From: a virus
Taxonomy: Duplodnaviria > Heunggongvirae > Uroviricota > Caudoviricetes
IMG/VR virus record: IMGVR_UViG_3300028048_001599
Reading direction: 5' to 3' (one strand)
DNA: 64,000 nt
The position numbers and the translations under genes were made by a program. Of the stretch, positions 18,658-60,696 are shown piece after piece (positions within the stretch are counted from its first letter, which is position 1; every line of letters starts with the position of its first letter). Under the pieces are notes generated by a model that was not told where the DNA came from, made no database searches, and saw only the letters and a program-made list of their open reading frames with translations.

Positions 18658-18686
18658 TTGACATTTTCTGATAAATGTGTTATAAT
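18658..18686 (+). promoter_or_regulatory. Consensus sigma-A (sigma70-type) promoter
   Basis: TTGACA, a 17-nt spacer, then TGTTATAAT (extended -10). It lies in the 360-bp AT-rich intergenic region upstream of 18756. Confidence 0.7.
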
Positions 18687-25535: not shown

Positions 25536-25570
25536 TAAGTAGCACTTAAAGTGCTACTTTTATTTTATAT
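25536..25570 (+). terminator. Rho-independent terminator
   Basis: agtagcac-ttaaa-gtgctact followed by TTTATTTTAT. Confidence 0.65.
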
Positions 25571-25601: not shown

Positions 25602-26300
25602 ATGGTAGTAATATGTAGAGATGATTTTATAAGAATATTAAAACAGGGTTCTGCTTATGTTCTTGGGACTTCTACTTGTAATAGTGGACTTCTGACAAAT
25701 CAGGGTTCAACTAATAGAAGATATATAAGAACACAAAAGTACAGACAAACACTTGTTGATAGTATTAGGTCAGCTATCAAAAATAGGGTGTTTAATATGA
25801 ATCTTGAAACGGATATTAAACTGTACACACCAACATTTGTCGACACTAATCCATATGCGGTAATGAGAAACCCTCTCAGTGATGTCCGTAACGAAGAGTT
25901 GGTTATAAAGACCGATTGTATTGAGATTCAGACTCGTGATAAAGATGACTCAATTTCAGTAGTTACAAGAGCACTTCGTGGTACATCATACAAATCTGAT
26001 AAGTGTTATCGTACCTCGTATTATTTTGGGGGTAATGTGAAGGTTGGTCAGTCTAATTATGTATATATTGCGGAAACAATTGAACTACCAAGCACTTCGG
26101 CATACTCCAGTGTGATAACTTATTCTCCCGCATTTTTTGTAATATATGCAGTAAAGACCGATAAAGAGGTGCCAATACCTTGTCATTCAACGCCTATCGG
26201 TGCTAAGGCAGATGAAATACTTCGTGACGAGGAGGAAAAATCGAGTGCAAAGAATAAGTCAAATGCACGAAAAAGGAAGGCGATTAAAAATGAGTTTTAA
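25602..26300 (+). CDS. Hypothetical protein
   Basis: ORF with RBS AAGGAGA. Confidence 0.55.
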   Translation: MVVICRDDFIRILKQGSAYVLGTSTCNSGLLTNQGSTNRRYIRTQKYRQTLVDSIRSAIKNRVFNMNLETDIKLYTPTFVDTNPYAVMRNPLSDVRNEELVIKTDCIEIQTRDKDDSISVVTRALRGTSYKSDKCYRTSYYFGGNVKVGQSNYVYIAETIELPSTSAYSSVITYSPAFFVIYAVKTDKEVPIPCHSTPIGAKADEILRDEEEKSSAKNKSNARKRKAIKNEF

Positions 26301-27495
26301 GTTAATATTAGACATGCATGAAAGTCTTGAAGAAACAGGTATCACCGATGAATACATTGAAGCTCTTGAGGAATTTATTATTGAATGTAACGAGGCTGAG
26401 GCTCGTGGTGAAGAACTTGTAGACGATTCTGTTTATGACACTGTTAAAACTTGGTTACAGGATGCAAGTCCGGATAGTGACGTGCTTAAGCATGTATGGT
26501 CAACAGATGTCAGTGACTTGACTGATTTGGATATATACCAGCAGAAATTCCCTATGGTATCTATTCAGACAATTAAGGATATCAATGATAAAGAAGTTAA
26601 CGACTTTATATCAAAGATGACTGGTTCTATGCGATTTTTAGCATCTATGAAATTGAATGGTCACGGTATTAGAGTAGTATTTAATAATGGGGTACTTGTA
26701 AAAGCACATACAAGGGGTCGTTCTTCAAATGGTAGGGATATAACACGTCAGGCAAAAAACTTCATTGGTGATAAACCAGAACTTGACGGTTTCGGGTTAG
26801 TCGAGGTAAGGGGTGAAGTACTTATACCATTTGAAAATTTATCCGCAGCTAAACAGTTCAACCCAGCAATAAAAAGTGCCTTTTCAGGGGTATCCTCACT
26901 TATAAAGGAAAGTTCAACAAAGGAAGAAAACGAGTTACTTCGATTTGTTGCTTATAACGTATTTTTCGATGGTTCTGAAGAATTTGTAGCACTTTCTGAT
27001 AAATTCAATTTTCTTGATGAGCATGGGTTTGAAACTCCTTACGGTCAGACATTTATGGTGGGACCGTCTAAAGCAAAAATGGCATTTGAAAAGATTGTTG
27101 AGATGTTTGCTACTGTTCAGGAGACATATTCTTATTATACTGACGGTGTTGTAGTTTCAGTAGACCTATTTGATGAATTTGAATCATTCGGTAGTGAGGA
27201 GCATCATCACAATGGTAATCTTGCATTGAAGATAGGTTTTTGGAAACAGGACATGTATTCTGCGGTAATTGAGGATATAAAGTGGAAACGGGGTAAAAAT
27301 AAACTTTCACCTGTAGCTGTTGTAGAACCTACTTTGACTGTTACGGGTAACACAGTGAGACATGTTCCGTTATATAATCCTTATAACATTCTTATACTTG
27401 ATGCATACCCTGGTGAGGTAATTCACTTTAGGTATGGTGGTGAAGCTGGTGTTAAGCCTTGTTTTGCAGACGGTAGGAATGTTACGGAAATTTAA
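26290..27495 (+). CDS. NAD-dependent (LigA-type) DNA ligase, N-terminal catalytic fragment (domain Ia, adenylation, OB-fold)
   Basis: Motif I MKLNGHG (KxDG-like, the adenylated Lys). TRGRSSNGRDIT resembles LigA TRGDGxxGEDVT. Motif IV is DGVVVSVD and motif V is LALKIGFW. The OB-like C-terminal end is VTGNTVRHVPLYNPYNILILDAYPGEVIHFRYGGEAGVKP. The ORF ends directly after the OB fold. The start was chosen at ATG 26290 after AAGGAAGG. Confidence 0.75.
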   Translation: MSFKLILDMHESLEETGITDEYIEALEEFIIECNEAEARGEELVDDSVYDTVKTWLQDASPDSDVLKHVWSTDVSDLTDLDIYQQKFPMVSIQTIKDINDKEVNDFISKMTGSMRFLASMKLNGHGIRVVFNNGVLVKAHTRGRSSNGRDITRQAKNFIGDKPELDGFGLVEVRGEVLIPFENLSAAKQFNPAIKSAFSGVSSLIKESSTKEENELLRFVAYNVFFDGSEEFVALSDKFNFLDEHGFETPYGQTFMVGPSKAKMAFEKIVEMFATVQETYSYYTDGVVVSVDLFDEFESFGSEEHHHNGNLALKIGFWKQDMYSAVIEDIKWKRGKNKLSPVAVVEPTLTVTGNTVRHVPLYNPYNILILDAYPGEVIHFRYGGEAGVKPCFADGRNVTEI

Positions 27496-27545
27496 TAAAA
27501 AAATAATAACCAATTATTAGTATATAGTAAAAAGGAGGGTTAAAA

Positions 27546-27968
27546 ATGAAAAAATATCTATTAATGACACTGGTTGTATTAGCTATGGTGGGTACTTCTG
27601 CCTGTAATAATGGTAACGATAAACAAAAGCAGCAAACATTAGCTGATGATAGTTCCGCAAGTCAGGCATCTATTTCACATGTTGAATCTGTAGTAGCTTC
27701 AAAGGTTGATGAAAGTAAACCTGACTTATTTGAACGTGAGGAACAAAGTTTAGAGCCTGTTACATCGGATAATATTATAGACAGCACGACACTTCCGGGC
27801 TCAACAAGTTCAGAAACTGAGGAATCATTGAATGGTGGCGAGACATCTGAGCAAGTGTCTGAACAGGTATCAAGGCAGACATCAGGTGATGTTTCAGGTC
27901 AGGAATCGACAACATCAGGTGAAACTGAACAGGAATCAAGTTCACATGACATAGGTGGCTTGTCATAA
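27546..27968 (+). CDS. Lipoprotein (lipobox TSAC) with an acidic S/T/E-rich mature region
   Basis: RBS AGGAGGGT. Signal peptide plus lipobox VGTSAC. Confidence 0.6.
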   Translation: MKKYLLMTLVVLAMVGTSACNNGNDKQKQQTLADDSSASQASISHVESVVASKVDESKPDLFEREEQSLEPVTSDNIIDSTTLPGSTSSETEESLNGGETSEQVSEQVSRQTSGDVSGQESTTSGETEQESSSHDIGGLS

Positions 27969-28007
27969 TACATAGTTAGTAGGTGTCACACAAGGGGTGT
28001 GATATAA

Positions 28008-28286
28008 ATGCGTACAAGAAATGGTTACTTTATAGAGTTAAATGGTAAAAACCTTTTTATAATTCAAGAGTCTTACTATCTCAAGGATAAACTGATAAAG
28101 ATTTTATTGTTAAGATTTGGCTGTAATTATGACCCTGAGTCAATAAAGAAAACACGGTCAAATGCAAAAAGAGCCAAGTTAGGGGTAGACAACCTTGGAA
28201 ATTACATAGTTAAACTAAAGGGTGGAACATTTACTCATATAGAGAATATTGTGATATTAAACTCAAATTCTTTTAACTTAGATTAA
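28008..28286 (+). CDS. Hypothetical protein
   Basis: ORF with RBS AGGGGTG. Confidence 0.45.
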   Translation: MRTRNGYFIELNGKNLFIIQESYYLKDKLIKILLLRFGCNYDPESIKKTRSNAKRAKLGVDNLGNYIVKLKGGTFTHIENIVILNSNSFNLD

Positions 28287-28297
28287 GAGGTGATTAC

Positions 28298-28621
28298 TTG
28301 ACTTTATGGAAATTCAAGGTGTTTGAACAATATTTCTTAGATGTTATGCAAAGACATGAAACAGAGTTCAACTTGAATATTAGTAATATACTTGTAAGTT
28401 TTGACGGTATAATCAAACTAAATGGGGTTTTAACTAATATTCAAAATACACCTTATGAATTAAGAAAAATATATAAAAATATTTTATCTTCTGTATGTAA
28501 TAATTATAATACAGACATACGGTATAATAACATACACGGTGACATTATCAATCCAGTCATAAATGTATGTTTAACCAAAAATAGGGGTATTTATGACTTC
28601 GTATTTGAAATAAAAGTTTAA
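28298..28621 (+). CDS. Hypothetical protein (TTG start)
   Basis: ORF with RBS AGAGGTGA. Confidence 0.45.
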   Translation: MTLWKFKVFEQYFLDVMQRHETEFNLNISNILVSFDGIIKLNGVLTNIQNTPYELRKIYKNILSSVCNNYNTDIRYNNIHGDIINPVINVCLTKNRGIYDFVFEIKV

Positions 28622-28641
28622 AAGGTATAGGTGGTAACAAA

Positions 28642-29607
28642 ATGAAATTAAAAAGACTTTTAGCGGTTCTCCTTGCATCGGTTGTATTTGTCGTACCGAT
28701 GTCAGCTTGTAATAATTCTTGTTGCAAAGATGGTGAATGTCAGTGTAGTTGTTGTAATCAGAACAAGGAAAGTTCTGTTGAATCTTCGGATGAATCTGAA
28801 TCACTTCCTGATGAAAATACCAACTCTGAATCGTATTCAGAACCATCAGACGAAGTAAAGGCAACAAAGGTTTATAAATACTTTGATAAAGTAAACACGG
28901 ATAAGGATACAAAAGTTACAGTCACATCTGATAATACCACATATAAGTATTTTGTAAGTGACGGCGAGATGGTTCAGTATGTTAACGTAACGGGTGATAA
29001 CCCTCAGGAGGGGGTACAATATAGTAAGGGTGATAAAGCTTATATTGTTGATATTACAAATAAGCAATACCGGACTTACGATTTGACGAATGACGAGAAG
29101 GCAATGAAATCTACGTACCTCTCAAATATCGTAAAAACAATGTTTACAAGTATAGAATTTGTGGATGAAAAAGACGGATACGAGGTATTTAAGTTTATAA
29201 CAACAGATTCAGAGGAGAAGAACGGGGTAGACTCAACTGAGAAATCAGTTGTTGATGATATTGAACCATCAAAGAAGTCAACATCGAGTGGTGCTACCGC
29301 GAGTTCCGCAAGTACTGACAGTTCTGAGGTTTCTGATGATGCTTCTGAAATAGTAACTCCAGAATATCTTTACATGAAAGTTGAAAAAGACGGAGTACTT
29401 GTAGAATCACGTGATTCTAAAGGCGAGATTTTGGACTCATCAAAATACTCAGTTTCAAAGGTAACAGAAAGTGATAAAAAAGTTTGTTCAATAGAGGGGT
29501 GTAAGGAAATAAAGGGTGAAGATGTTTCAAATCTTCCTAACGTTCCTGATGTTTCTGAGGATACTTCAAAAGTTGAATCAGCTGTTGAGTCTAATAGCTC
29601 AAATTAA
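28642..29607 (+). CDS. Lipoprotein, paralog family member 1
   Basis: Lipobox MSAC. It shares the KDGxxY...KTY.IxD and EKDGYEVFKF...DKK motifs with 35114..35890 and 38730..39623. Confidence 0.65.
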   Translation: MKLKRLLAVLLASVVFVVPMSACNNSCCKDGECQCSCCNQNKESSVESSDESESLPDENTNSESYSEPSDEVKATKVYKYFDKVNTDKDTKVTVTSDNTTYKYFVSDGEMVQYVNVTGDNPQEGVQYSKGDKAYIVDITNKQYRTYDLTNDEKAMKSTYLSNIVKTMFTSIEFVDEKDGYEVFKFITTDSEEKNGVDSTEKSVVDDIEPSKKSTSSGATASSASTDSSEVSDDASEIVTPEYLYMKVEKDGVLVESRDSKGEILDSSKYSVSKVTESDKKVCSIEGCKEIKGEDVSNLPNVPDVSEDTSKVESAVESNSSN

Positions 29608-29771
29608 TAAAGTGTAGCAAGTATGTGTTAGTATACTAATATTGTATATAATACTTGGTGCATTAATAGCAATATTAGCATACATATACTCATTATATTA
29701 CTTTGTATCGATGTTGTTATTGATGCTGTCAGTTTTTGAGAAAGATAACCAACAAAGAGAGAAGGAACACA

Positions 29772-30245
29772 ATGAAGAGTATACGTGCAATTTTGAAGCA
29801 GAATGACAAACATGAAATAAAACTGAATTTTAGTGTGGATAATAGGTACAAATCAGCTATTGTAACGTCTATAATAAAAGCTATATCAATTATAATTTTA
29901 GGTATTATTGCACAGGTAAACGTTGGAGGCTCAGCTGGTTTATTTACGTTGTTTTCAACGATAGGAATAGGGGTAGTAATGATAGCACTAGGGATTCGGG
30001 TGTCTACAACAAAAGAGTTGTTAGATGTGCTTAGGTTAATCTTGATATATTTTATAACGGGGGTATTATACATTATATGTTTTGTATTAATTATTACGTT
30101 AGATATGTTTAAGGTTACGAGTGATTTTAAGTGGTTATCTTTAGTATCAGTAATAAATGTGGTAGTTAATTTCTGTTGTTATTATGTTTCATTGTTTGCA
30201 TTGGATATGCATTTACAGTATTCAAATAATTCAGATAAATTTTAA
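29772..30245 (+). CDS. Integral membrane protein (about 4 TM helices)
   Basis: ATG after AGAGAAGGAACACA. Hydrophobic helices are visible. Confidence 0.55.
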   Translation: MKSIRAILKQNDKHEIKLNFSVDNRYKSAIVTSIIKAISIIILGIIAQVNVGGSAGLFTLFSTIGIGVVMIALGIRVSTTKELLDVLRLILIYFITGVLYIICFVLIITLDMFKVTSDFKWLSLVSVINVVVNFCCYYVSLFALDMHLQYSNNSDKF

Positions 30246-30332
30246 ACCACAAGGTAGCACGACAGTGTTACCTTGTTCAATTTGTACTTTAATGTTGACC
30301 TTTTTGGTTTAAGGTCAAGGGGGACTTGAAGA

Positions 30333-31169
30333 ATGAAAAAGAATATATTAATTTTACTTGTAGCATGTTTGGTTTTGTTATGTTCAGGTTGTACTAATTG
30401 GGTTCATGCAGAGAGTGAGGATGACGTTTCTACAGCTTCAGAGGCAAGTATGTTAGAAAAAGCAACTGCATCCACTGATAATAAGGCTCAACTTAAAGAG
30501 GAAAACAGTAAACAAGAAGTTATCACGTTGACTACGGAATTTAAGTCAAAAATTAAAAAATTATATGAAAAAGACTCAGATATGACTATAACATGTAAGA
30601 TAAAGAATCATTACGGTGAGTGTTCTTTTTCTTGGGATTACATTGTAAGAAAACATTCTGATTATGCATATCGTGTATATATTGAGAATATTAAATGTAC
30701 AAGTTGTAATTTTAAATCTATAACTTCTGAGGATGTTACTAACTACATGAATAGAGTATTAAGTTGTACCACCTTAGAGGGAATAAGAGGGGTAGATGAA
30801 TGTGCTTATGATTTGTATATTTTTAATGCACGTGTGCGGGAAAAAATAGACGCATCAGATTTTCAGAGACTTGTATTTGATAAATTAAATGACAACGATG
30901 AAATAATATATGATTCGTATGATGGTGAATGTTTACGTGCATCACATGAGGCATTAGGTTGTATAGCTTCAAAAATAACAGACATATATGGTGGGGACAT
31001 TACTTCGGTATTATCAGCTGATATAAATTTCGATGCTAAACAATCAGATAAAACTCAGCATTTCATAAGGGGTAATTACACATATGATGTTTCCTTGAGT
31101 AAAGACGAACTCAAATTAAATTCAGTAGTAAATGACGTAAAAACCGAAATGACAATCAAGATTAAATAA
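30333..31169 (+). CDS. Lipoprotein (lipobox CSGC)
   Basis: RBS AGGGGGA. Signal peptide MKKNILILLVACLVLLCSGC. Confidence 0.6.
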   Translation: MKKNILILLVACLVLLCSGCTNWVHAESEDDVSTASEASMLEKATASTDNKAQLKEENSKQEVITLTTEFKSKIKKLYEKDSDMTITCKIKNHYGECSFSWDYIVRKHSDYAYRVYIENIKCTSCNFKSITSEDVTNYMNRVLSCTTLEGIRGVDECAYDLYIFNARVREKIDASDFQRLVFDKLNDNDEIIYDSYDGECLRASHEALGCIASKITDIYGGDITSVLSADINFDAKQSDKTQHFIRGNYTYDVSLSKDELKLNSVVNDVKTEMTIKIK

Positions 31170-31220
31170 GGTAAGCACACTTATGTGTTTATAATAAATT
31201 ATGAAAAATGAGGTATGAAC

Positions 31221-32792
31221 ATGGAAATCGAGTTTATTCCAATCATTATTGGAGTGGTTGTAGTCATAGCATTAATTATATTTATGTGTATGATTTATCG
31301 TGTTGCAGACATCGACAAGGCACTAATTGTAACAGGCGGTAAGAAACCAATAGTCAAGGTATCAGGGGGTAGTTTTGTAATTCCGATATTCCGAAAAGCT
31401 CAGTACTTTGACCTTTGTATGCTTACTGTTACTGCTGACAGGGATGAGGTAAAGACAGTAACAGCGGTACCAATTATCATTGACTGGACAGCACAGATTA
31501 GACCTGATACATCTGATGTAGAAGGTAAACTTATGAAAGCTATTGTATCATTTAAAGAGAGGGGTAAAGACGGCATTGTAAATGACGTAAGACTTACACT
31601 GACTGGTGCAGTACGTGATATAGTTGCTTCAATGACACCTGAAGAGGTACTGAAGGATAAACAGACATTTACTGAAAAAGTAATACATATCGTGTCTGAT
31701 GAAATGGCAAAAATGGGTATGGAACTTGTTTCATTAAACATTCAGGACATAACTGATAAAAATGGTTACTATGATAACATGGCAGCACCTGATATGCAAG
31801 CCAAAAGGCAAGAGGCTGAAGTCACAAAGGCGAAAGTTGACCAAGCTATCAGAGAGCAGAAGGCAGAGTCTGAGAAGAAGGCACAACAGGCAGAACTTAC
31901 ATCACAGTTGGAAGTAGCTGAAAAGAAAAAGGATAACGACCTAAAACTTGCAGACTTCAAAACACAGACAGACGTAGCTAACGCTAACGCTGAGATTGCT
32001 GGTGAACTTCAAAAGACAAAAAGACAGCAAGAGATAGCCGTAGAACAAGGTCGTATTAAAGTTGTAGAACAGGAACAGGCTAACCTTGCCGCTCAGAAAG
32101 AAAAAGAGGTAATTGCCACAAAAGCGGAAGCAAACAAGCAGAAAAAGATGATTGACGCTGAGGGTGACGCAAACGTAAAGAGAATAGCAGCCGAGATGGG
32201 GGTAGAAGTTGCAAAACAGGATGCCGAGGCTGTAAGAACCACTGCTAAGGCTCAGGCTGATAGAGTAACTGCTGAAGGTAACGCTGAAGCAGAGGTTGTA
32301 AGACAAAAAGGTATTGCAGCTGCGGACGTTCAGAAAGCACAGGGTACTGCTGAGGCTGACGTTGATAGAGCAAAGCGTATGGCAGAGGCAGATGGTACAA
32401 AAGCACAGCTTATAGCACAAGCTGAAGGTGAACAGGCACTTGCTGATGCTCGTGCTTCACACGATAAAGTCAATTTTGAACTTGCGAAGGTTGAAATTGA
32501 GAATCGTACAAAAGTTGAGATTGCAACTAATGTAGCTACAATAATGGCAGAGGTTGGAAAGAACGCTCAGTTCGTAAATATTGGCGGTTCAGTAGGTAAT
32601 GGTTCAACAGGAAATGTACTTCTCGACACCCTGAGAGGTATACCGGAACTTATGAAGGTTCTTGACGTTGAAAATCAGGCACTTAACGGAAAGCCGTTCA
32701 ATGAAGAGGTTGAAGGACTTGTAAAGAGTGTAGCAGGACCTGTAAAGGGTATTTTGTCAAGTAACACACCTGAGGCTACTGATAAGAAATAA
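31221..32792 (+). CDS. Flotillin / SPFH (band 7) domain protein
   Basis: N-terminal TM helix, then LIVTGGKKP...SPFH core, then a long Ala/Glu/Lys/Gln-rich coiled-coil region typical of flotillins (FloT-like). The start is probably ATG 31221 (9 nt from GAGGTA). Confidence 0.8.
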   Translation: MEIEFIPIIIGVVVVIALIIFMCMIYRVADIDKALIVTGGKKPIVKVSGGSFVIPIFRKAQYFDLCMLTVTADRDEVKTVTAVPIIIDWTAQIRPDTSDVEGKLMKAIVSFKERGKDGIVNDVRLTLTGAVRDIVASMTPEEVLKDKQTFTEKVIHIVSDEMAKMGMELVSLNIQDITDKNGYYDNMAAPDMQAKRQEAEVTKAKVDQAIREQKAESEKKAQQAELTSQLEVAEKKKDNDLKLADFKTQTDVANANAEIAGELQKTKRQQEIAVEQGRIKVVEQEQANLAAQKEKEVIATKAEANKQKKMIDAEGDANVKRIAAEMGVEVAKQDAEAVRTTAKAQADRVTAEGNAEAEVVRQKGIAAADVQKAQGTAEADVDRAKRMAEADGTKAQLIAQAEGEQALADARASHDKVNFELAKVEIENRTKVEIATNVATIMAEVGKNAQFVNIGGSVGNGSTGNVLLDTLRGIPELMKVLDVENQALNGKPFNEEVEGLVKSVAGPVKGILSSNTPEATDKK

Positions 32793-32810
32793 TTACATAA
32801 TATAACATTA

Positions 32811-32882
32811 ATACACGTATCATATAATAAATACATAATAATTTGTTATGGCATTTATTGCTGATACGTGTATATTTTTATG
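32811..32882 (+). terminator. Long-range inverted repeat plus T-tract (possible terminator)
   Basis: atacacgtatca ... tgatacgtgtat (12 bp perfect, about 40-nt loop) followed by ATTTTTATG. Confidence 0.35.
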
Positions 32883-33080
32883 CTTAGTGAACATTTATTT
32901 ATTATGAAATAGTAATGGTTTTGCATATCTTGATGACGTTATAAAAGACGTCTATAAATACATTCATTGATTTATTCTGTCGAAATTTGTAGAAGATTAG
33001 AGTAATTTGTTGTACATTAGAAAGTTGATAAGAAATCATTAGTTAGTTTTTATATTCAGTTAGAGGATGGGTGTAATACT

Positions 33081-33476
33081 ATGATTATTGGTTATAGAAC
33101 ACAAAATTCAAGTTTTAACTCAATAGTAGTACCCTTTAAAGATGTACTTGAGTTTGAAACAAAGGAGTTAGGAAATGTAGATATTTACCTAACAATGCGT
33201 GAACGTTATGGTTTGAAAATAGACCTACGTTGGAAAAAAGACAAATGTAACGCTATAATACTTGAATATTTTAAAAAGAAATACAAAGGGGTAGTTCCAC
33301 TTTGTGTTTGGCTTTGTGACTCACCTTATTCTGTTAAACAACTTTACTCACACGGTAATGAACCAATAATAAAGGTAATATTACCTGATAGTACCATTAT
33401 TGCATCAGATTTGGGATATGACGGTAGGTTATATGTGATACATTCAGGTCAAACTTACTCTTGGGAATATGTATAA
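33081..33476 (+). CDS. Hypothetical protein
   Basis: ORF followed by an imperfect hairpin at 33489..33520. Confidence 0.5.
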   Translation: MIIGYRTQNSSFNSIVVPFKDVLEFETKELGNVDIYLTMRERYGLKIDLRWKKDKCNAIILEYFKKKYKGVVPLCVWLCDSPYSVKQLYSHGNEPIIKVILPDSTIIASDLGYDGRLYVIHSGQTYSWEYV

Positions 33477-33621
33477 GATTTATAATTATTACCTGTTGGT
33501 TAAGTATTACCGACAGGTAAAAATTAATAACATATTTCCATTATTAATAAATAAGTGATAGTGTCTGAGTGGATTGAAGGGGAGTTTAAGGACACAAACT
33601 AATAGAAAAGGGGTAATACAT

Positions 33622-34611: not shown

Positions 34612-34625
34612 TATAACCTAACATA

Positions 34626-34665
34626 ATATGTCTATACTTCGGTATAGGCATATTTTTTATTTTAT
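34626..34665 (+). terminator. Rho-independent terminator
   Basis: atatgtctatac-ttcg-gtataggcatat followed by TTTTTTATTTT. Confidence 0.6.
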
Positions 34666-34799
34666 TTTTAATGTAAATTTGAGACATTTATTAATACTTT
34701 TATCTATAATAAATAAGTTTAAAAAGCGGAAAAATCATAGGAAAGGGGCAAAACTATGATACTTACTACTATCTTACAAAATAATAAGGAATGATAGTT

Positions 34800-35099
34800 A
34801 TGAAATTAAGAATAAAGCCTATTTCGGTTGATTTAAAATGTAAGAAGACCATTGAACAGGCAGCAAGACAACTGGGTATTTTACCATATTTTACAAAATA
34901 TAATGGTAGATATATAGCAATTCTTACTAACAGGAAAATAAATATAGATGACACAATTGTAGTCAAGGAGGAACATGCCTCAAGTGGAGATGTAGTTTTA
35001 TTAAATGGGGTATCGACTGTATGGGGAAATTTTTTGTTTAAGAAATTGCAGTTTAATGAATTAATGACGAAAAACTTTATTACATATGCAGAGGTTTAA
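34800..35099 (+). CDS. Hypothetical protein
   Basis: ATG after AAGGAATGA. Confidence 0.4.
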   Translation: MKLRIKPISVDLKCKKTIEQAARQLGILPYFTKYNGRYIAILTNRKINIDDTIVVKEEHASSGDVVLLNGVSTVWGNFLFKKLQFNELMTKNFITYAEV

Positions 35100-35113
35100 T
35101 AGGGGGAGCAAAA

Positions 35114-35890
35114 ATGAAAATTTCGAGGGTATTAGCGGTTAGCATGTGTTGTGTTATATGTTCAGCACTTGTAGGTTGTGATAATAAAAGTAATAATGAG
35201 GTTTCAGAATCCGCTGAATTAAGTATAGTAGTAAGTACTGAGACCTCAAATGATAGTAGTGATACTTCAAAAAATCCTATGCAACATGAATCATCAAATG
35301 ATGCAGAAAGTTCATTAACAAAACCTACTGTATCTAACGATTCTAATTATATCTCTATTAATGACTTAGATAAAACAAAGTCTTACGGATATTATAAAAA
35401 TTTCAAATCAATGGGTTCAGCGACATTGTCTGGTGAAATTGTAGAAATACTAAACGATTCAGAAAATGTATCGACTTTTAAGATGTGTAAGGACGGTAAG
35501 AAAATATACATCGAAATGTTTTCGGGGGATTTTGGTTTAGCCGAATACTTTGATGGAAAGCAATATTACACATTAAATAAAACTGACAAAACCTACAGTG
35601 TAATTGATGGTTTATCCTATAATTTTGACGGTGAAATAAACGGTTTATTTACTGGTATGGCAAGTGTAGTAGAAAAAGATGGTATAGAAATATTTACATT
35701 ATCGGATGTGCAATACGCAGCGAATGGTGATGTTGAATTATTAGCTGAAACAACAGATGATGGTGTAACATTAAGTATTCGCAAAGCAGGGGGTACTGAA
35801 ATTAAGCGAAAAATTCGTTTTAGAATAAGTACACTTTCAGAAGATGATAAACAAAATTTCGGTATCAATGGTTATAAGAAGGTTGAGTAG
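35114..35890 (+). CDS. Lipoprotein, paralog family member 2
   Basis: Lipobox LVGC. C-terminal EKDGIEIFTLSD...FRISTLSEDDKQNFGINGYKKV parallels 38730 FKLSKVSDNDKKLFDISGYNEI. Confidence 0.65.
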   Translation: MKISRVLAVSMCCVICSALVGCDNKSNNEVSESAELSIVVSTETSNDSSDTSKNPMQHESSNDAESSLTKPTVSNDSNYISINDLDKTKSYGYYKNFKSMGSATLSGEIVEILNDSENVSTFKMCKDGKKIYIEMFSGDFGLAEYFDGKQYYTLNKTDKTYSVIDGLSYNFDGEINGLFTGMASVVEKDGIEIFTLSDVQYAANGDVELLAETTDDGVTLSIRKAGGTEIKRKIRFRISTLSEDDKQNFGINGYKKVE

Positions 35891-35901
35891 TGAGGTTACA
35901 T

Positions 35902-36120
35902 ATGAAAAGATTATCTAAGAGAAATTCAAGAAACAATAAGATGTTTGTTTCAATACTGTTATGTATTTCGATAGTTCTTATAGCTTTAATGGTAACAATA
36001 ATAGTTATATCAATGCCTATGTTATCATTTCAAGAAACCTGTTTTGCATTTGGTATTTTATTTATAGCAATGTTAGCATGGTGGTTATTTTATAGGAGAA
36101 TCCGGAAGAAATTAAAATAA
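35902..36120 (+). CDS. Small two-TM membrane protein (holin-like candidate)
   Basis: ATG after GTGAGGT. It has two hydrophobic helices and a basic C-terminus. Confidence 0.45.
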   Translation: MKRLSKRNSRNNKMFVSILLCISIVLIALMVTIIVISMPMLSFQETCFAFGILFIAMLAWWLFYRRIRKKLK

Positions 36121-36131
36121 GAGGTGACAGT

Positions 36132-36413
36132 ATGATAGAAATAACGGTAGATAATGCAAGACAGGGTTGCTACGATGGTAATTACCTACGTGGTATGTTT
36201 CCTGTGATAGCATTCACAAAATACAGGGGTAACTTTATAGCAATACCAGGTGTAACTTTGAATAAGAATGAAAAAATCATTATTCATGATGTCCCTGATA
36301 CGAGCAAATGGGGGTTTTGGACAAGAAGTAAACTACCAATAGAAATAACATACTCTTCTGTTTCAGAAAAACAATTAGGTTCAAAGGATTTTGTATTATT
36401 TACAGTAGTATAA
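36132..36413 (+). CDS. Hypothetical protein
   Basis: ORF with RBS AGAGGTGA. Confidence 0.5.
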   Translation: MIEITVDNARQGCYDGNYLRGMFPVIAFTKYRGNFIAIPGVTLNKNEKIIIHDVPDTSKWGFWTRSKLPIEITYSSVSEKQLGSKDFVLFTVV

Positions 36414-36427
36414 TGTGAGGTGTTTGG

Positions 36428-36991
36428 ATGAATACATATTTTATTTCAGATTTACATTTTGGTCACGCTAACGTCATTAAGTATGACAATAGACCTTTCG
36501 TAAATATAGAACAAAACGATTCGGTGTTAATAGACAATTGGAATAGTCGTGTTACAGATAAAGATGAAGTGTACATTCTTGGTGACTTTAGTTGGTATAA
36601 TGCAGCAAAGACACTTGAAATTTTCAGTAAACTCAAGGGAAAAAAGTATCTAATTCGAGGTAATCATGACAGCAAGTTATTGAAAAACTCAAAAATTAGA
36701 GGTCTGTTTGAAGAAATTGTAGACTATAAGGAAATCAAACTAACAAAGGATTTTGGTTTGGTGTTATCACATTATCCCATCCCTTGTTTCAATCATCACA
36801 TTCAGGGCTGGGTTCATTTGTATGGGCATGTTCATAACACACTTGAATGGAATGTAATGTTACTAACAAAGGAAACATTAGAGAGAACATTCAACGCACC
36901 GTGTCGTATGTATAACATCGGTTGTATGATGGATTATATGGGATATACTCCAAGGACATTGGAAGAAATATTGAGTACTTGTGAAAATTAA
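36428..36991 (+). CDS. Calcineurin-like metallophosphoesterase
   Basis: The N-terminal ISDLHFGH, GDFS and GNHD motifs are the conserved phosphoesterase metal-binding blocks. Confidence 0.75.
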   Translation: MNTYFISDLHFGHANVIKYDNRPFVNIEQNDSVLIDNWNSRVTDKDEVYILGDFSWYNAAKTLEIFSKLKGKKYLIRGNHDSKLLKNSKIRGLFEEIVDYKEIKLTKDFGLVLSHYPIPCFNHHIQGWVHLYGHVHNTLEWNVMLLTKETLERTFNAPCRMYNIGCMMDYMGYTPRTLEEILSTCEN

Positions 36992-37006
36992 TTAGGGGGA
37001 ATTTAA

Positions 37007-38353
37007 GTGGCACTTACAGATGAATATGAAGTGGATGAAAGAGAGGATGAAACCTTAGACGATGAATATGACGATGCTTTTGATGGTGCTGAAAAACTGC
37101 AACATGAGCTACTGTCAATAAAATCAGAGGTAACATTAAAAGAACAGGACATTGAAATAGATGATATTCTAACATCTGATTTCAAAAAGGTATCTCGTGG
37201 TAAAACAATAACAGGTCTTTCAAATCTAATAGCCGACTGGGGTATCGTAACACCAATCCATGTTTTAAAACTTGAGGATGATGATACATACTTACTACTT
37301 GATGGTTTACGTAGAATATATGCAGCACTTCGTAAAGGTGAATCTAAAGTCAGGGCGATAATTTGGGAGTTCAGTGATATTGATGAGGGTAAAGATATTG
37401 CTCCTATTGTTTCTTTAATGGTAAATAGGTCACAACCTTATGCTAATAAGGAACAGTGGAATATAATGCAATTATTACTTGAACGTTCAACATCACCTGG
37501 ACTTATAGAGTTCCTACTTCAACTTCCTGCTGGTGACGCTATGCGATTACAAGATATAATGACAGCAGACGTTGATGGTTTTCAGGAGTTTCGTGATAAA
37601 TTTCTTGCTGACGAGCTAAATATTGATGCAGCATATAAGAAACTGCAGAAATGTAGAAAAGACGAGGACAAACTTGAAAAGGAAGACCGTACTATCATAA
37701 CTGATTCAGAAGACGGTGGTAAAGATACAGCACAGGGTGACGAGAGAAGACTACTTGAACAGGATGAAGTTCTCGACCTTCTGGATATGTCATCTGATGG
37801 TGATGTCGATGACATGGATGTTGAGGATTTGGACATGACATCAGAGGTCAACAAAGCCAAAGTTCAAGATAAAGACGATAGACATCCTGTAGACCCACTT
37901 ATAAAACAAGAAACATTCCGTAGAGATAACTTCACTTGTCAGTGCTGTGGTCTTAACGGTGAAGCAAATATAGCTGTATTGATATTCCATCATATAGTGG
38001 GGGTAGCTTGTGGAGGACCCGACTCAGTTGACAACGGTTTAACATTGTGTCAAAATTGCCACATGCTTCTTCATTTATATGTATTCGGTAAAGTCCATAT
38101 CCACTGGAACGAACTTGATGAGGCACAGACGAAAAAATTTAAGCGTATCTGTAAATACGGTAATGTGCAAATCAAAGCTTGGAAAAAAGTGGGGGTATCT
38201 AAAGAGGAAGCTTATAAAAAGGACGCAGACTCTCGTAGACACTTATACCCTGGTGAGGGACTTGACGTAATCAATCAGGCATATGATAGAGCAAAAAGGG
38301 ACGGAACTTTTGATAATACATCAAAGGAACAAGAAAATACAGATGAGGGTTGA
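37007..38353 (+). CDS. ParB/Srx-like N-terminal domain fused to an HNH endonuclease
   Basis: LLDGLRRIYAALRKG (ParB GxRRxxA box). C-terminal CQCCG...HHIV...NGLTLCQNCHMLLH (HNH). Acidic linker. GTG start after AGGGGGA. Confidence 0.75.
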   Translation: MALTDEYEVDEREDETLDDEYDDAFDGAEKLQHELLSIKSEVTLKEQDIEIDDILTSDFKKVSRGKTITGLSNLIADWGIVTPIHVLKLEDDDTYLLLDGLRRIYAALRKGESKVRAIIWEFSDIDEGKDIAPIVSLMVNRSQPYANKEQWNIMQLLLERSTSPGLIEFLLQLPAGDAMRLQDIMTADVDGFQEFRDKFLADELNIDAAYKKLQKCRKDEDKLEKEDRTIITDSEDGGKDTAQGDERRLLEQDEVLDLLDMSSDGDVDDMDVEDLDMTSEVNKAKVQDKDDRHPVDPLIKQETFRRDNFTCQCCGLNGEANIAVLIFHHIVGVACGGPDSVDNGLTLCQNCHMLLHLYVFGKVHIHWNELDEAQTKKFKRICKYGNVQIKAWKKVGVSKEEAYKKDADSRRHLYPGEGLDVINQAYDRAKRDGTFDNTSKEQENTDEG

Positions 38354-38358
38354 TATTT

Positions 38359-38718
38359 ATGAATAGTAAAGTTGTAAAGCAGTTCACAGTTTCGGTACTA
38401 GAGGTAATGGATACTGTTCACGTTTATGAGAAGTTCAAATTATCCTTTAATGGGAACCTTGATAGATTCATGAAAGACAGTAATGGTATTGATATACTCG
38501 AGGTTCGTAAATTTGGTTCAAGATTGTTATTCATTGTTGTGGAGAAGAAATCAGGTGTCACTCCGGATTCAGCATATAGATACTTATTTGAGCGTTTTGG
38601 TGCAATTTTTGATGTGAATAGTAATATTCCGGCATGTATTGTTAGAATAAGTGGTACTAAAACTCAAAGTTATAAACTCTTTATAGATGACGAGATATGT
38701 GAGAAATCAAGTATCTAG
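38359..38718 (+). CDS. Hypothetical protein
   Basis: ATG after GAGGGTTGA. Confidence 0.5.
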   Translation: MNSKVVKQFTVSVLEVMDTVHVYEKFKLSFNGNLDRFMKDSNGIDILEVRKFGSRLLFIVVEKKSGVTPDSAYRYLFERFGAIFDVNSNIPACIVRISGTKTQSYKLFIDDEICEKSSI

Positions 38719-38729
38719 GGGGTGATAAA

Positions 38730-39623
38730 ATGAACAAGAAACTCATAATTGGGGTAATTACATTAGCAATTGTAGGTTCAAGTGTGGTTTGTATGTCAGC
38801 ATGTTCAAAGGAATCCAATGACACCCAAAGTTCAGTTACATCAAGTAAAATTGAAAAAGACGTGTCAAAGGATACTTCAAATGACACTTCCAATGACACT
38901 TCAAATGACACCTCAAATGACACCTCAAAGGTTGAAAAAAGTTCCTCAAAAAGTGGTGAAAACACCGTAGATGTTGATGAACCATCGTCAGTGGTATCAA
39001 AATCAAGTGAACCAATTGAGCACCTAATAGCTGCGGAAGCATCTGAGGAATCTTCAGAGTCATCTGAGAGAAAGATTAGTTCTGAGGTTAGAAATTCAAA
39101 CTTTGGCAAATTTATGTTAAACATAGGCAAAAGAATAGCAAGCGGAGCTACACTTAATGTTTCACGTGATATAAATTCAATAAAACTTGTTACTGTTGAT
39201 GACTCTATAGCTTTGGTTATTAAAGACACAAATGATGAAATAACATATTATAATGTTGTAAAGGACGGTAAATCTTTCGTTATTGACCCTAAGAATAAAA
39301 CTTATGTTATATCAGATGATTCATCACGTGCTAAGGATTTAGTAAGCACGTCAAATGATGAAATTAATAGTGGCTTAGATTACTTAAAACTTGATAAAGT
39401 CGAGGATGGCTATGAGTACTTTTCATTTGATGCTGAAGCATCATCACAAGGGGTAAATGATATTTTAATAGTCAAAGCTACCGAAGATGAATGTACGATT
39501 TATGCAAATACTCTTGACTCAACACCATATATGACATTCAAACTGTCGAAAGTATCAGACAATGATAAAAAGTTATTTGATATATCAGGTTATAATGAAA
39601 TAGACGCAGCGTCAGTAAACTAA
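38730..39623 (+). CDS. Lipoprotein, paralog family member 3
   Basis: Lipobox MSAC. DTSN repeats (12-bp tandem at about 38871..38930). Shared C-terminal domain as described above. Confidence 0.65.
   Translation: MNKKLIIGVITLAIVGSSVVCMSACSKESNDTQSSVTSSKIEKDVSKDTSNDTSNDTSNDTSNDTSKVEKSSSKSGENTVDVDEPSSVVSKSSEPIEHLIAAEASEESSESSERKISSEVRNSNFGKFMLNIGKRIASGATLNVSRDINSIKLVTVDDSIALVIKDTNDEITYYNVVKDGKSFVIDPKNKTYVISDDSSRAKDLVSTSNDEINSGLDYLKLDKVEDGYEYFSFDAEASSQGVNDILIVKATEDECTIYANTLDSTPYMTFKLSKVSDNDKKLFDISGYNEIDAASVN
38871..38930 (+). repeat. 12-bp tandem repeat (gacacttcaaat-like, about 5 copies) encoding DTSN repeats
   Basis: Visible tandem copies. Confidence 0.8.
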
Positions 39624-39630
39624 TATATAG

Positions 39631-39668
39631 TAAGTGATGGTTTTCCATCACTTATTTTTATATTTTTA
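39631..39668 (+). terminator. Rho-independent terminator
   Basis: aagtgatgg-tttt-ccatcactt followed by ATTTTTATATTTTT. Confidence 0.7.
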
Positions 39669-39678
39669 AGACTTCCTA

Positions 39679-39707
39679 TTGACATTTTAGGAATAATATG
39701 TTATAAT
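39679..39707 (+). promoter_or_regulatory. Consensus sigma-A promoter
   Basis: TTGACA, a 17-nt spacer, then TGTTATAAT. Confidence 0.7.
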
Positions 39708-39743
39708 ATAGTAAATAATAATTTTATAAAAGGGGGTAAATAT

Positions 39744-40139
39744 ATGTCATATCAGAAAAAGTACTGGCTCGAACATAAATTACCTGATAGTAATATTTGG
39801 AAAGGCTGGATAAATTTATACAGTACGTGTATAACGGATTTACCAAAAGAAATATTTGGTACATATTGGTTTGAAAAGACATCAGTAGGTTGGCGGGGTT
39901 ACTTTTGGTTAAACAATCAGACCGAACAAGACGCTGTAAACAATAACCAATTTGTAGTCACAGCAGGTATTTGGAGACCTGAAGTAACATTCAAAACACC
40001 GCCTATGTCTATGCAAGAAGCTGAAGCAAGATTACGGTACTTAGAGGAAATATCAAGCAATTACACAGTCATTCCGAGGATAATATGTAGAATTGAAGAT
40101 AGTGTGATATTGTCAAAGTGTCATGTTATGGAATATTGA
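39744..40139 (+). CDS. Hypothetical protein
   Basis: ORF with RBS AGGGGGTAA. Confidence 0.5.
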   Translation: MSYQKKYWLEHKLPDSNIWKGWINLYSTCITDLPKEIFGTYWFEKTSVGWRGYFWLNNQTEQDAVNNNQFVVTAGIWRPEVTFKTPPMSMQEAEARLRYLEEISSNYTVIPRIICRIEDSVILSKCHVMEY

Positions 40140-40171
40140 CTGTAATAAATTAGGTCAAGGGGGTAATCAAA

Positions 40172-40582
40172 ATGAAGGTAATTACAAATAAGGAATTATT
40201 ACAATTTATTCGTAGAACAACAATATCTGAACAACTAAGTCCGGTTACAGATGATATCGTGAAATTTACTGCTGTACTTAATAATTTCATGGGACCTCTT
40301 AATTCAATCGGTGTTGCTAATAAGGTTAATAAATTACTTATGTCTGCAACTGACTCTGAGGATTTGAGGCATATTTTTCAGGTTGTCAAAGTTGCAGAAA
40401 GTAGACCTGTAAATTTGGACAGATTAAATATTCAGGAATTAAGACTTTACTGTAATGCTTTTGACTATAAATATAATGAATGTCTGACAAACTCATTTGA
40501 CATGTGGTCTGAGGTATTTGGCACTGAGTTCAATAACTGCGTACGTAAGGAGATAGTGGCATACATAGAAAATTGTGATTAA
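40172..40582 (+). CDS. Hypothetical protein
   Basis: ORF with RBS AGGGGGTAAT. Confidence 0.5.
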   Translation: MKVITNKELLQFIRRTTISEQLSPVTDDIVKFTAVLNNFMGPLNSIGVANKVNKLLMSATDSEDLRHIFQVVKVAESRPVNLDRLNIQELRLYCNAFDYKYNECLTNSFDMWSEVFGTEFNNCVRKEIVAYIENCD

Positions 40583-40594
40583 TGGGGGATTCTT

Positions 40595-41048
40595 ATGTTA
40601 CATTTATACATTGGTAGAAGAAAGGGCTACTTCTTATCTGGAGATGGAGTATTCGACTTTAACTTTGACTGTTCTTATTTATTAACTGACTTCTCCAAAA
40701 AAGTAATCAAGGCAATTGATAAAAGTGAAGTAGTGGATAAGAATGTAATAGTATCTCCAATATTAGGGGGGTATTGCACCTTCATTTTTGGCAGGTAGTA
40801 CTAAGACTTTGTTAATGTTGATGTATACAGATTATAAATTTTATCTTGAGGCTATGGGTGATAATTGTTTACCCTTTTTAAAGTATATAAGCGACCAAAA
40901 AGATATTTTTATGTGTACGACAACTATACGTCCTCTGTTTATTGCTGGGTTTACTAAATTCTATGTAGAAAACACAAATGAAATTGTAACCGACGTCGAT
41001 AGATATATAGAACTTGAGATTGAATATGGTGGTGACAGAGCATGTTAG
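40595..41048 (+). pseudogene. Two overlapping ORFs (40595..40798 and 40788..41048) in frames differing by +1. This is a possible frameshifted single gene at a G6/T5 homopolymer, or a sequencing error.
   Basis: Both frames are open across 40767..40798, which contains the GGGGGG and TTTTT runs. The second ORF has only a TTG start and no RBS. Confidence 0.3.
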
Positions 41049-41458
41049 GGAAGCATACAATAAAAGCAGTGTCCAAAAACGAAACATATTTAAATGTTAA
41101 AACATTTAGGTTAGGTGGTATCAGAAAAATGGAATGTAAATATTGTGGTAACACAGACGCACATAACTTTGTACTAAGACGAAAAGGTTCTCAGACAGGT
41201 TTATATTGTGTCAACTGTGGAAAATGGCTCAAATGGGTAGGTAAAGTGGAACTAAGGGCAATAAAATCATTAGGGGTAAAAGAGGAAGTCGACCAAGAAC
41301 AGAATCAAGTACCCAACACTTTGACAAAGCAACACGACAAGTTCATCTGTACTTACTGTGGCTCAACCGAATATGAAAAACGTCAGGTCAGTATTCACAC
41401 TGGAATTTACTGTAAGACTTGTGGGAAGTGGCACTCATGGGTCAAGAAAAGTCGATAA
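41042..41458 (+). CDS. Tandem zinc-ribbon protein
   Basis: Two copies of the CxxCG...CxxCGKW module (CKYCGNT...CVNCGKW and CTYCGST...CKTCGKW). Confidence 0.55.
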   Translation: MLGKHTIKAVSKNETYLNVKTFRLGGIRKMECKYCGNTDAHNFVLRRKGSQTGLYCVNCGKWLKWVGKVELRAIKSLGVKEEVDQEQNQVPNTLTKQHDKFICTYCGSTEYEKRQVSIHTGIYCKTCGKWHSWVKKSR

Positions 41459-41465
41459 AAGACGA

Positions 41466-41499
41466 ATTGACGGTGATTCATAATCACCGTCAATTTTTA
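41466..41499 (+). terminator. Rho-independent terminator
   Basis: ttgacggtgatt-cat-aatcaccgtcaa followed by TTTTTAT. Confidence 0.75.
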
Positions 41500-41818
41500 T
41501 GGTATTTTATGGTAAAATTTGTAGAAAGCTCTACGGCTCGATTTAAGGGGATTTTCATAGCCGAGGGGTAGTTTCTCAAATATCAATAAAAAATCGCTCA
41601 CAGGGCTTCACAGGGCAAAATAGAGCTATTCTGAGGTTCAGTTGTCAGGTGGTCGGTTGATATTTGGTTGTAGTTGGTCATTATTGTTAAGTCGGTGGAA
41701 TGACAGATTTTTCCAATGTTGTATTATTTTTCGAGGACATAGAATAATTAAATACTACTTGAATTAGTACCAAAAAATTCATATGTAGCAATAATAAATT
41801 GCAAAGGAGTTGTTAAAA

Positions 41819-42700
41819 TTGTTAGTAAAAGAACTAAGGGATAATTCTGAATTACCTGAAAAATTTATAGATACTTTGCTCGAGACTTGTCCTGATTGTG
41901 GTTCGGACATGCAAATTAACGATTCACTTAGGGAATTAAGCTGTAGCAATCCTTATTGTAAAGGTAAGGTAGCACAGAGAATGGTTTCTTTACTTGCAGA
42001 TATGGGGGTAAAGAACATGGGTGAATCTCGTTGTTTGAAGTTTATTGAAGAAACAGGGTTGAAATATCCGGCATCTATTCTTCAATGGGAACCTTCAGAT
42101 GGTGACATAGGAGACTTATCCTCAGACTTCCTAAATGGTATCAAGGAACAGATAGACAGTCATCGTTCAATGATGTTGTGGGAGTATATAAAATATTCAA
42201 ATATTCCATACTTGAGGGATACGGCAAGAGAATTGTTTAAGGGGTATAATGACCTTAAACAATTTTATGCTATACTTGAATCGTATGGTGACCATGGGGT
42301 ATTTTTTATTCAGGATATACTGAAAATTAAGGATGAGGGTGTAGTATCCATAAGGGCACTGAATATTTATACTTCTCTTGTTACCTACAAGGAAGAGTTA
42401 CTCTACGGAATAAATTTCGTAAATATCATAGTTCCTCAGTCAACATTGAATGTTTGTATTTCGACTTCTGTAGGAAATGGTTACTCGTCCAAAGCAGATT
42501 TTGTAAACCAAATGAATCAGAGATATGGTGATATTTGTCACATCAACTTCTTATCTTCGGTGACTAAAAACTGTGATTATCTGATATGGTCAAAACAGGG
42601 TGCGCCCACATCAAAGGTTAATAAAGCTACGAAGTATGATATCTCAATACTGACTGGTGAGGAGTTTGAAAGAATGTTGAGGGATAAATACAATGGCTAG
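41819..42700 (+). CDS. LigA-type DNA ligase C-terminal fragment (Cys4 zinc finger plus helix-hairpin-helix region)
   Basis: CPDCGSDMQINDSLRELSCSNPYCKGK matches the LigA zinc-finger pattern CPvCGS...L.C.NP.C. It is followed by HhH-like GVKNMGESRCLKFIE. The start is TTG 41810 or 41819. Confidence 0.6.
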   Translation: MLVKELRDNSELPEKFIDTLLETCPDCGSDMQINDSLRELSCSNPYCKGKVAQRMVSLLADMGVKNMGESRCLKFIEETGLKYPASILQWEPSDGDIGDLSSDFLNGIKEQIDSHRSMMLWEYIKYSNIPYLRDTARELFKGYNDLKQFYAILESYGDHGVFFIQDILKIKDEGVVSIRALNIYTSLVTYKEELLYGINFVNIIVPQSTLNVCISTSVGNGYSSKADFVNQMNQRYGDICHINFLSSVTKNCDYLIWSKQGAPTSKVNKATKYDISILTGEEFERMLRDKYNG

Positions 42701-48468: not shown

Positions 48469-48485
48469 GTTAGGGGTTGAACATT

Positions 48486-60667: not shown

Positions 60668-60696
60668 TTGACAAATTAGGAAATTTTTGTTATAAT
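60668..60696 (+). promoter_or_regulatory. Consensus sigma-A promoter
   Basis: TTGACA, a 17-nt spacer, then TGTTATAAT. Confidence 0.7.

Follow-up and report, generated by a model that had tools for sequence, protein, structure and literature searches.

Two open reading frames (ORFs) in a 64,000-nucleotide stretch of phage DNA (IMG/VR record IMGVR_UViG_3300028048_001599, Caudoviricetes; the whole stretch is referred to here as the window) probably encode a single LigA-type DNA ligase in the form of two subunits, which come together with no covalent bond between them. LigA, a target of antibacterial drugs, is the textbook case of an enzyme with many domains on a single chain. In the window its catalytic part is encoded at 26290..27495 (the N-half, 401 amino acids) and its DNA-binding part at 41819..42700 (the C-half, 293 amino acids), both on the + strand; the 14,323 nucleotides between them (27496..41818) hold about 22 unrelated + strand genes that lie outside the ligase. 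An earlier note on this DNA, made from its letters alone, had placed both ORFs at these coordinates and strand and had read them as a LigA-type ligase divided at a domain boundary into two distant genes; both the positions and that reading are borne out here. We infer, from sequence comparison and modelled structures, that the two products would associate physically, use NAD+ and seal nicks, and that their genes would be transcribed separately.

The N-half comprises domain Ia (approximately residues 1-70), the nucleotidyltransferase domain (approximately 85-318) and an OB domain with motif VI (approximately 322-392), and the motifs that had been quoted for it, KLNG, TRGRSSNGRDIT, DGVVV and LALKIGFW, are all present. 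Its start is an ATG preceded by AAGGAAGG, a good ribosome-binding site; a longer ORF from a GTG at 26200 is unsupported and that start is disfavoured, since the homologues begin at MSFKL. The protein matches Pfam PF01653 with an expect value (E) of 5.7e-18, the OB match being weak, and spans positions 11-371 of the 656 in PHROG 3869, ‘NAD-dependent DNA ligase’ (E 4.6e-43). Against structures of E. coli LigA the single sequence scores around E 1e-10 and the profile of its family 1e-22, the latter aligning with E. coli LigA residues 25-378. An AlphaFold2 model built with 25 relatives (predicted local distance difference test, pLDDT, 84) matched LigA structures at E 1e-19 to 1e-24, and subunit A of the PR1 heterodimeric ligase (9i5i_A, 9hu3_A) at about 1e-17. 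The stop codon falls just 11 residues past motif VI of the OB domain, and the tail that precedes it is conserved (PC.xDG[RK]L[VI]T[ED], with G395 invariant). Searches with the N-half found 867 proteins at E <= 0.001, and the statements made here on its family refer to the best 120 of these 867, all of which are 400-474 amino acids long. The closest cultured homologues, from phages SP-15, LIS04, Yoloswag and Psa21, are 24-27% identical and are intact LigAs of 619-684 amino acids.

The start of the C-half is a TTG at 41819, which is taken to be right because the Shine-Dalgarno sequence AAGGAG (41804..41809, + strand) lies 9 nucleotides upstream and the homologues begin at the equivalent MLVKEL. 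A conserved leader of 23 residues (F19 invariant; V6, L9, P16 and L23 nearly so) is followed by a Cys4 zinc finger (nucleotides 41888-41959) whose four cysteines are all invariant in 25 relatives, an HhH region (approximately 41960-42430) and a BRCT domain (approximately 42440-42697). The protein spans positions 390-653 of the 656 in PHROG 3869 (E 7.4e-23), and the profile of its family matches residues 403-511 of E. coli LigA, covering the zinc finger and HhH, and residues 630-668, within the BRCT domain. With the AlphaFold2 model (pLDDT 91.2), the top PDB match found by Foldseek is subunit B of the PR1 ligase (9hu3_B), with the Zn-HhH region of E. coli LigA next. It had been suggested that the C-half might align better to an unrelated Zn-ribbon/HhH family; LigA and ligase subunit B match it better than does any other Zn-ribbon or HhH family. 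The earlier note was mistaken in stating that it has no BRCT domain. This domain makes up the last 85 or so residues, where there is a weak Pfam BRCT match (residues 222-287) and an alignment with the BRCT domains of T. filiformis and E. coli LigA; PF00533 is precomputed for two members of the family, and by Foldseek the C-terminus matches the isolated BRCT domains of PARP4 and RFC1.

An exhaustive profile search with the C-half gave 3,575 representatives at E <= 0.001, 136 of them at E <= 1e-30; the best 150 of the 3,575 range from 127 to 534 amino acids, most being about 280-350. None of the 42 family members listed is named by any source, and only two have Pfam matches. Searching by tblastn with the C-half gave zero matches at E 1e-5 and weak ones only at E 5, and a scan of IMG/VR with the C-half alignment gave zero relatives. 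The Bacteroides phage DAC16 group was considered as a cultured, stand-alone relative of the C-half and was rejected, the match lying inside an intact LigA of 636 amino acids with KLDG.

It is clear that the two ORFs tile the single PHROG 3869 profile without overlap, and their resemblance to LigA is therefore not due to chance. The break falls in the linker between the OB domain and the zinc finger, near E. coli LigA residue 400. Single-chain LigAs, both that of E. coli (2OWO, 5TT5) and those of SP-15, LIS04, Yoloswag, Psa21 and DAC16, have the same order of modules (Ia, nucleotidyltransferase, OB, Zn, HhH, BRCT) and share with the window the catalytic lysine, the glutamate of motif III, the aspartate of motif IV, the lysine of motif V, and motif VI. 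They differ in being one polypeptide of 620-690 amino acids with KxDG, whereas the window has two polypeptides and KxNG.

Both halves are functional genes under strong purifying selection. In comparison with a 94-95% identical, collinear relative (ENA k141_267235, 84-93% nucleotide identity), the ratio of non-synonymous to synonymous substitution rates (dN/dS) comes to 0.053 in the N-half and 0.040 in the C-half, among the lowest in the region. These values bear upon a further explanation, that the division is an assembly error or the decay of a pseudogene, or that the two products are exteins joined by a split intein or by trans-splicing. The phage does carry selfish elements, with an intein in its DNA polymerase and an HNH gene in the spacer, and this would fit such an origin. 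A dN/dS of about 0.05 for both halves, together with the recurrence of the arrangement in many independent assemblies, in practice rules out a pseudogene or an assembly artefact, and the suggestion that the N-half might prove to be a pseudogene in relatives is also answered by the uniform length of the best 120 of its 867 homologues. The spacer consists of 14 kb of ordinary genes with terminators of their own. Intein fragments are excluded because the tails, 11 residues past motif VI in one half and 23 before the first cysteine in the other, leave no room for them; in alignments each tail behaves as a native linker or leader, and neither half has an intein match in Pfam. An artefactual or intein-mediated origin is thus very improbable.

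The rate of synonymous substitution (dS) is 0.55 and 0.62 for the two halves, as against 0.14-0.22 for some genes of the spacer. Matched dS was considered as a sign that the halves had been transferred together, but dS is a mosaic across the region (0.03-1.17) and the match is not distinctive; a mosaic that changes gene by gene between two phages points instead to frequent recombination. Window positions 33750-34313 and 39739-40156 are absent from k141_267235, the first loss removing most of a gene for a CHAP-domain protein.

The division is a property of the whole family. Similarity to the N-half was seen in none of 189 relatives of the C-half (42 and 147 from two listings), and similarity to the C-half in none of the 120 N-half relatives, so no fused ligase was found among them. 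The same contigs hold both halves: five contigs match in size between the two clusters, including those of 324,292 and 323,685 bp, and explicit coordinates for both genes are available in NODE_58, k141_267235, L007 and L026. The halves have also diverged to a similar degree, their identities to the window for the N- and C-half in individual genomes being 53/53, 54/57 and 54/56%. The rarity implied when the arrangement was first described as unusual does not survive these results, as both halves belong to large families that are split in all relatives listed, and the structure of a PR1 heterodimer has been solved (9HU3/9I5I).

The two genes are never neighbours in the relatives. The N-half comes first and the C-half follows at 14.3 kb in the window, 13.5 kb in k141_267235, 9.3 kb in NODE_58 (a contig of 176.5 kb) and about 9.8 kb in L007; in L026 the order is reversed, with the C-half preceding the N-half by 4.7 kb. 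Around the C-half in L004, L006, L015, L020, L021 and L023, and around the N-half in L013, the 10 kb to each side do not contain the partner. Thus in none of the 12 informative contigs or lineages are the halves adjacent. The content of the spacer differs among relatives through insertions and deletions, with lengths from 9.3 to 14.3 kb. The C-half sits in a conserved block, with a small Zn-ribbon gene 5' of it and, 3' of it, a gene for a methyltransferase-like protein of about 600 amino acids and further genes down to one for a sortase-domain protein; part of this block is found beside the N-half instead in L013 and L026.

Hairpins resembling terminators also separate the two genes. One at 25537..25559 (+ strand) lies 5' of what appears to be a two-gene unit made up of 25602-26300 and the N-half. 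At least three strong ones occur within the spacer, all on the + strand: one of 13 pairs with a T-run at 34625..34654; one at 39629-39656, followed by a perfect match to the extended sigma-70 promoter consensus (TTGACA-17-TGnTATAAT, 39679-39707; the two together span 39629..39707); and one with a 15-bp stem and a U-run at 41464..41496, just past the stop codon of the gene upstream. The last is likely to be an intrinsic terminator, leaving 320 nucleotides before the C-half, which would therefore head its own transcription unit. Separate transcription of the halves is thus likely, judging from these hairpins only. A common phage promoter 5' of both halves was looked for, and only generic sigma-70-like sites were found, none of them convincing before the unit of the N-half. 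The region 41459-41818 forms 360 nucleotides of non-coding DNA 5' of the C-half, in which the short direct repeat CACAGGGC occurs twice; its fold is more stable than that of shuffled sequences (z = -3.4), mostly owing to the terminator, and it has zero Rfam matches.

Such an arrangement might be taken to mean that the two proteins work independently, the N-half as a self-sufficient minimal ligase or with some other DNA-binding partner from phage or host, and the C-half as a free DNA-binding or scaffold factor that serves, for example, in replisome or repair recruitment through its BRCT domain. The lack of linkage in the 12 contigs or lineages, the reversed order in L026, the hairpins between the halves, and the placing of the C-half in a conserved block of its own (between the Zn-ribbon gene and the methyltransferase-like and other genes) with the N-half elsewhere are all in keeping with this; furthermore, stand-alone ligase DNA-binding domains are described in the jumbo-phage literature and might recruit a host ligase (PMC7824862). 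The order Zn-HhH-BRCT is, however, specific to LigA, and the break is exactly at the LigA linker; the halves co-occur and have diverged to similar degrees. In single-chain LigA, moreover, the HhH is part of the DNA clamp (PMC5052709), and T5-like phages retain both annotated subunits, while the title of the PR1 entry in the PDB calls that enzyme heterodimeric. Independent functions are accordingly judged unlikely, and association of the two products into one ligase is preferred.

The precedent of phage T5, which the earlier note had invoked, is a real one. T5 ligA (323 amino acids) and ligB (259 amino acids), T5.116 and T5.117, lie side by side with a spacer of 200 bp that contains two annotated promoters, and are annotated as subunits A and B; LigB-like genes of this kind occur in 965 phage records. 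The end of T5 LigA (...RAGGVIPCIVERVYD) and the start of LigB (MKIEIPTQCPSCG) fall at the same linker as the break in the window, LigA ending 7 residues past ...GGVIPC and LigB starting 8 residues before its first cysteine. In both systems the catalytic subunit stops after motif VI of the OB domain and the second runs through the Cys4 zinc finger, HhH and BRCT. The PR1 enzyme, for which the PDB titles of 9HU3 and 9I5I are our source, is described as ‘PR1 phage heterodimeric DNA ligase in complex with 21-mer nicked DNA’ (9HU3). To our knowledge this T5/PR1 heterodimer was the only documented split of LigA until now.

The differences from T5 are nevertheless considerable. The T5 genes are adjacent, whereas those of the window are 14.3 kb apart and are never adjacent in relatives; T5 LigA has 323 residues, a canonical KLDG motif and, in domain Ia, a YY dyad, as against 401 residues, KxNG and no dyad in the N-half; and the phages themselves are unlike, the family of the window being of about 324 kb and from gut metagenomes and the T5-like Demerecviridae of roughly 110 kb. 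Alignment by hhalign gives a probability of 98.5% for the N-half with T5 LigA and of 93.7% for the C-half with T5 LigB. The families of the window nonetheless score higher against intact LigAs than against the T5/PR1 subunits: the N-half profile gives 108 bits with LIS04, 97 with SP-15, 82-84 with bacterial LigA and 63 with PR1 subunit A. Fission independent of that in T5 is consequently at least as likely as common descent, and these scores lead us to lean towards convergent rather than shared fission.

A further probable case of an unlinked split ligase, to be taken as a lead only with about 75 kb of the genome left unscanned, is found in the cultured jumbo phage PTm1 of Tenacibaculum (AP019524). 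Its ORF-160 (117802-118914; L036:17802-18914), annotated ‘NAD-dependent DNA ligase LigA’, has 370 amino acids and is truncated after motif VI (...SGDIIPYILTDV); 15.3 kb downstream of it is ORF-179 (134218-135042; L036:34218-35042), whose 274 amino acids finish in a BRCT-like region. The model of the C-half matched in BFVD a PTm1 ‘BRCT domain-containing protein’ (E 5.7e-7), which is taken to be ORF-179 from its equal length and from the weak BRCT match of ORF-179. PTm1 differs from the window in having a canonical KYDG and no Cys4 finger, and hhalign of ORF-179 with the C-half family gave a probability of 2%, which is not significant.

Other multidomain replication enzymes of phages are also known to be made as several polypeptides that come together again, among them the T4 topoisomerase (genes 39, 60 and 52), the multi-gene RNA polymerase of phiKZ-like jumbo phages and, with a homing endonuclease, nrdA of Aeromonas phage Aeh1. 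In several of these a homing endonuclease is exactly at the split, whereas the HNH gene of the window is in the spacer and at neither junction. This gene, which encodes a ParB_N and HNH endonuclease protein of 448 amino acids (37007-38353, + strand), was considered as the cause of the split; it is never found at a junction, and such a role remains speculation. Its product is 99% identical in a close relative, with a dN/dS of 0.02, and the gene is kept between the halves or 5' of the C-half in L001, L004, L007 and L026.

The active site of the N-half departs from that of other LigAs. Motif I, K121-L-N123-G124 (26650..26661, + strand), aligns to K115-L-D117-G118 of E. coli, so that K121 is the predicted adenylated lysine; 25 relatives all share the K, the N and the G. 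All 120 N-half homologues have KxNG in place of the canonical KxDG, which is present in every other LigA aligned, phage or bacterial, including those of T5, PTm1 and DAC16. There is little or no variation in motifs III, IV, V and VI, represented in the N-half by E176, D285/G286, K314 and the YGGEAGVxP block (the first three corresponding to E. coli E173, D285 and K314). Elsewhere the TRGDG of other LigAs is TRGRS, and E. coli R200 is replaced by lysine; the position of E113 is serine, and that of K290 is Ser, Ala, Glu or Thr. Domain Ia is helical in the model and keeps the equivalents of D32, Y35 and D36, but the Tyr22/His23 dyad has given way to variable residues. In E. coli LigA, E113 and K290 contact adenine. 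The K290 position is likewise non-basic in three intact LigAs, those of SP-15, LIS04 and Yoloswag. D117 and K290 of E. coli LigA are among the residues reported as essential (review PMC5052709).

The N-half could also descend from LigA but have acquired a different chemistry, using another nucleotide donor or another substrate, such as nicks in RNA-containing or modified DNA, with or without the C-half; its KxNG, like that of RNA ligases, and a degenerate nicotinamide mononucleotide pocket would be the signs of this. The KxNG of all 120 homologues, against KxDG in all LigAs compared, is what would be expected of such an enzyme, as are the loss of the Ia Tyr-Tyr/His dyad to non-conserved residues, the change of TRGDG to TRGRS and the absence of K290; two RNA ligases, Trl1-LIG and MthRnl, also have KxNG as their motif I (PMC6379707, PMC4797309). 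The asparagine of that motif is, however, non-essential in MthRnl and in the fungal tRNA ligase, showing that the position tolerates change (PMC4797309), and the absence of K290 is shared with the intact LigAs just named. In domain Ia the D-x-x-Y-D core, formed in E. coli by D32, Y35 and D36, varies little or not at all, which argues that the nicotinamide mononucleotide-binding domain is still used, and the overall fold and all other motifs are LigA-like. Changed chemistry is on these grounds rather improbable, a little more so than independent functioning of the halves. Use of NAD+ and ordinary nick sealing by the two-subunit ligase is likely but unproven.

A mechanism can be proposed for a ligase built from the two subunits. 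The 401-residue subunit would take AMP onto Lys121, most probably from NAD+, and would carry out the chemistry at the nick, while the 293-residue subunit, with its zinc finger, HhH and BRCT, would provide the DNA-binding half of the clamp and bind duplex through the HhH and the zinc finger. In single-chain LigA the DNA-binding half closes a protein ring around the nicked duplex. The nucleotidyltransferase, OB and HhH of that enzyme jointly clamp the DNA, with the zinc finger positioning the OB domain relative to the HhH and the BRCT being helpful but dispensable (PMC5052709). The halves from the window may meet on the DNA and close round the nick as these domains do and, judging by its title, as the PR1 heterodimer does. 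Docking is probably aided by the tail that ends the N-half and the leader that opens the C-half; both are conserved, in contrast to the poorly conserved linker of intact LigA, and this would fit such a role. As the genes drift apart, and even swap order, in relatives, they are probably expressed from different transcripts.

Several points weigh against this interpretation. In obligate partners, unlinked genes in different putative transcription units and in variable order are less to be expected, and those of T5 lie side by side. The window covers 64 kb of a genome of roughly 324 kb, and another ligase may be encoded elsewhere. The putative active site is also non-canonical, with KxNG, changes at the positions of E113 and K290 and no Tyr22/His23 dyad; NAD+ use and full nick sealing are therefore not to be assumed. 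A bolder version, which we regard as speculative and unlikely to hold in full, is that these proteins form a distinct and ancient LigA subfamily, so far confined to large phages that are uncultivated. As an obligate heterodimer encoded by unlinked, separately regulated genes, the enzyme would have its ligase activity, or its targeting through the BRCT/HhH subunit, set by the timing of the second subunit; the altered active site of the catalytic subunit (KxNG, TRGRS, neither the Ia tyrosine dyad nor K290) would give it a preference for cofactor or substrate unlike that of any LigA yet characterised.

The source is an uncultivated giant (jumbo) gut phage of about 324 kb. Proteins 96-99% identical to those of both ligase ORFs are encoded on contigs from metagenomes, the longest being of 324,292 and 323,685 bp, and the related loci come mostly from human gut assemblies. 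Neither ligase ORF had a blastn match among 50,697 phage records, so no deposited genome is a close relative of the phage. The genes of the window are on the + strand, except for two short and doubtful ORFs; guanine-plus-cytosine (GC) content is about 0.34, with a strongly positive GC skew, and zero tRNA genes and zero Rfam families were found in the window.

Besides the HNH gene, the spacer includes + strand genes for SPFH/Band7 (31215-32792), CHAP (33574-34611) and metallophosphoesterase (36428-36991) proteins. An ORF of 2156 amino acids (1868-8338) has as its sole match a PHROG of unknown function, and a sortase-domain protein and an ArdC-like anti-restriction protein are encoded at 48477-49460 and 49574-50680; the sortase-domain gene is kept 3' of the C-half in several relatives (L001, L004, L006 and L030). 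The family-A DNA polymerase (53322-57377, 1351 amino acids) contains an intein of 284 amino acids (residues 765-1048; window 55614-56465) at the conserved ...NHVIQG|TAADIYK... motif. The junctions of the intein are canonical, with Cys1 (CVDGDT...) at its start and ...VITHN, then Thr, at its end (IQG|CVDG...THN|TAAD); this is a classical intein, in contrast to the ligase halves of the same phage, which have none. The extended sigma-70 consensus (TTGACA, 17 nucleotides, TGnTATAAT) is perfect at three intergenic sites, 18658-18686, 39679-39707 and 60668-60696, which are probably strong promoters for the host polymerase that mark the starts of transcription units.

The split ligase is real, and a two-subunit ligase of the T5 type was already known; what is moderately novel is a widespread, always-split LigA family with unlinked genes and an unusual active site. 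In PTm1, ORF-179 is annotated ‘hypothetical protein’, and the N-half is annotated ‘NAD-dependent DNA ligase’ as if it were complete. With the C-half unnamed and the N-half named in this way, surveys of jumbo-phage gene content will mis-score ligase function. For enzymologists, the invariant KxNG offers a naturally occurring change at a position regarded as essential for DNA ligases. It appears that LigA has repeatedly been divided at the OB-Zn linker. To the T5/PR1 enzymes is now added a much larger and more diverse family of split LigAs whose genes have no linkage at all, with the cultured PTm1 as a further probable case; such natural fissions show which inter-domain links of LigA are dispensable and how its clamp is rebuilt from parts.

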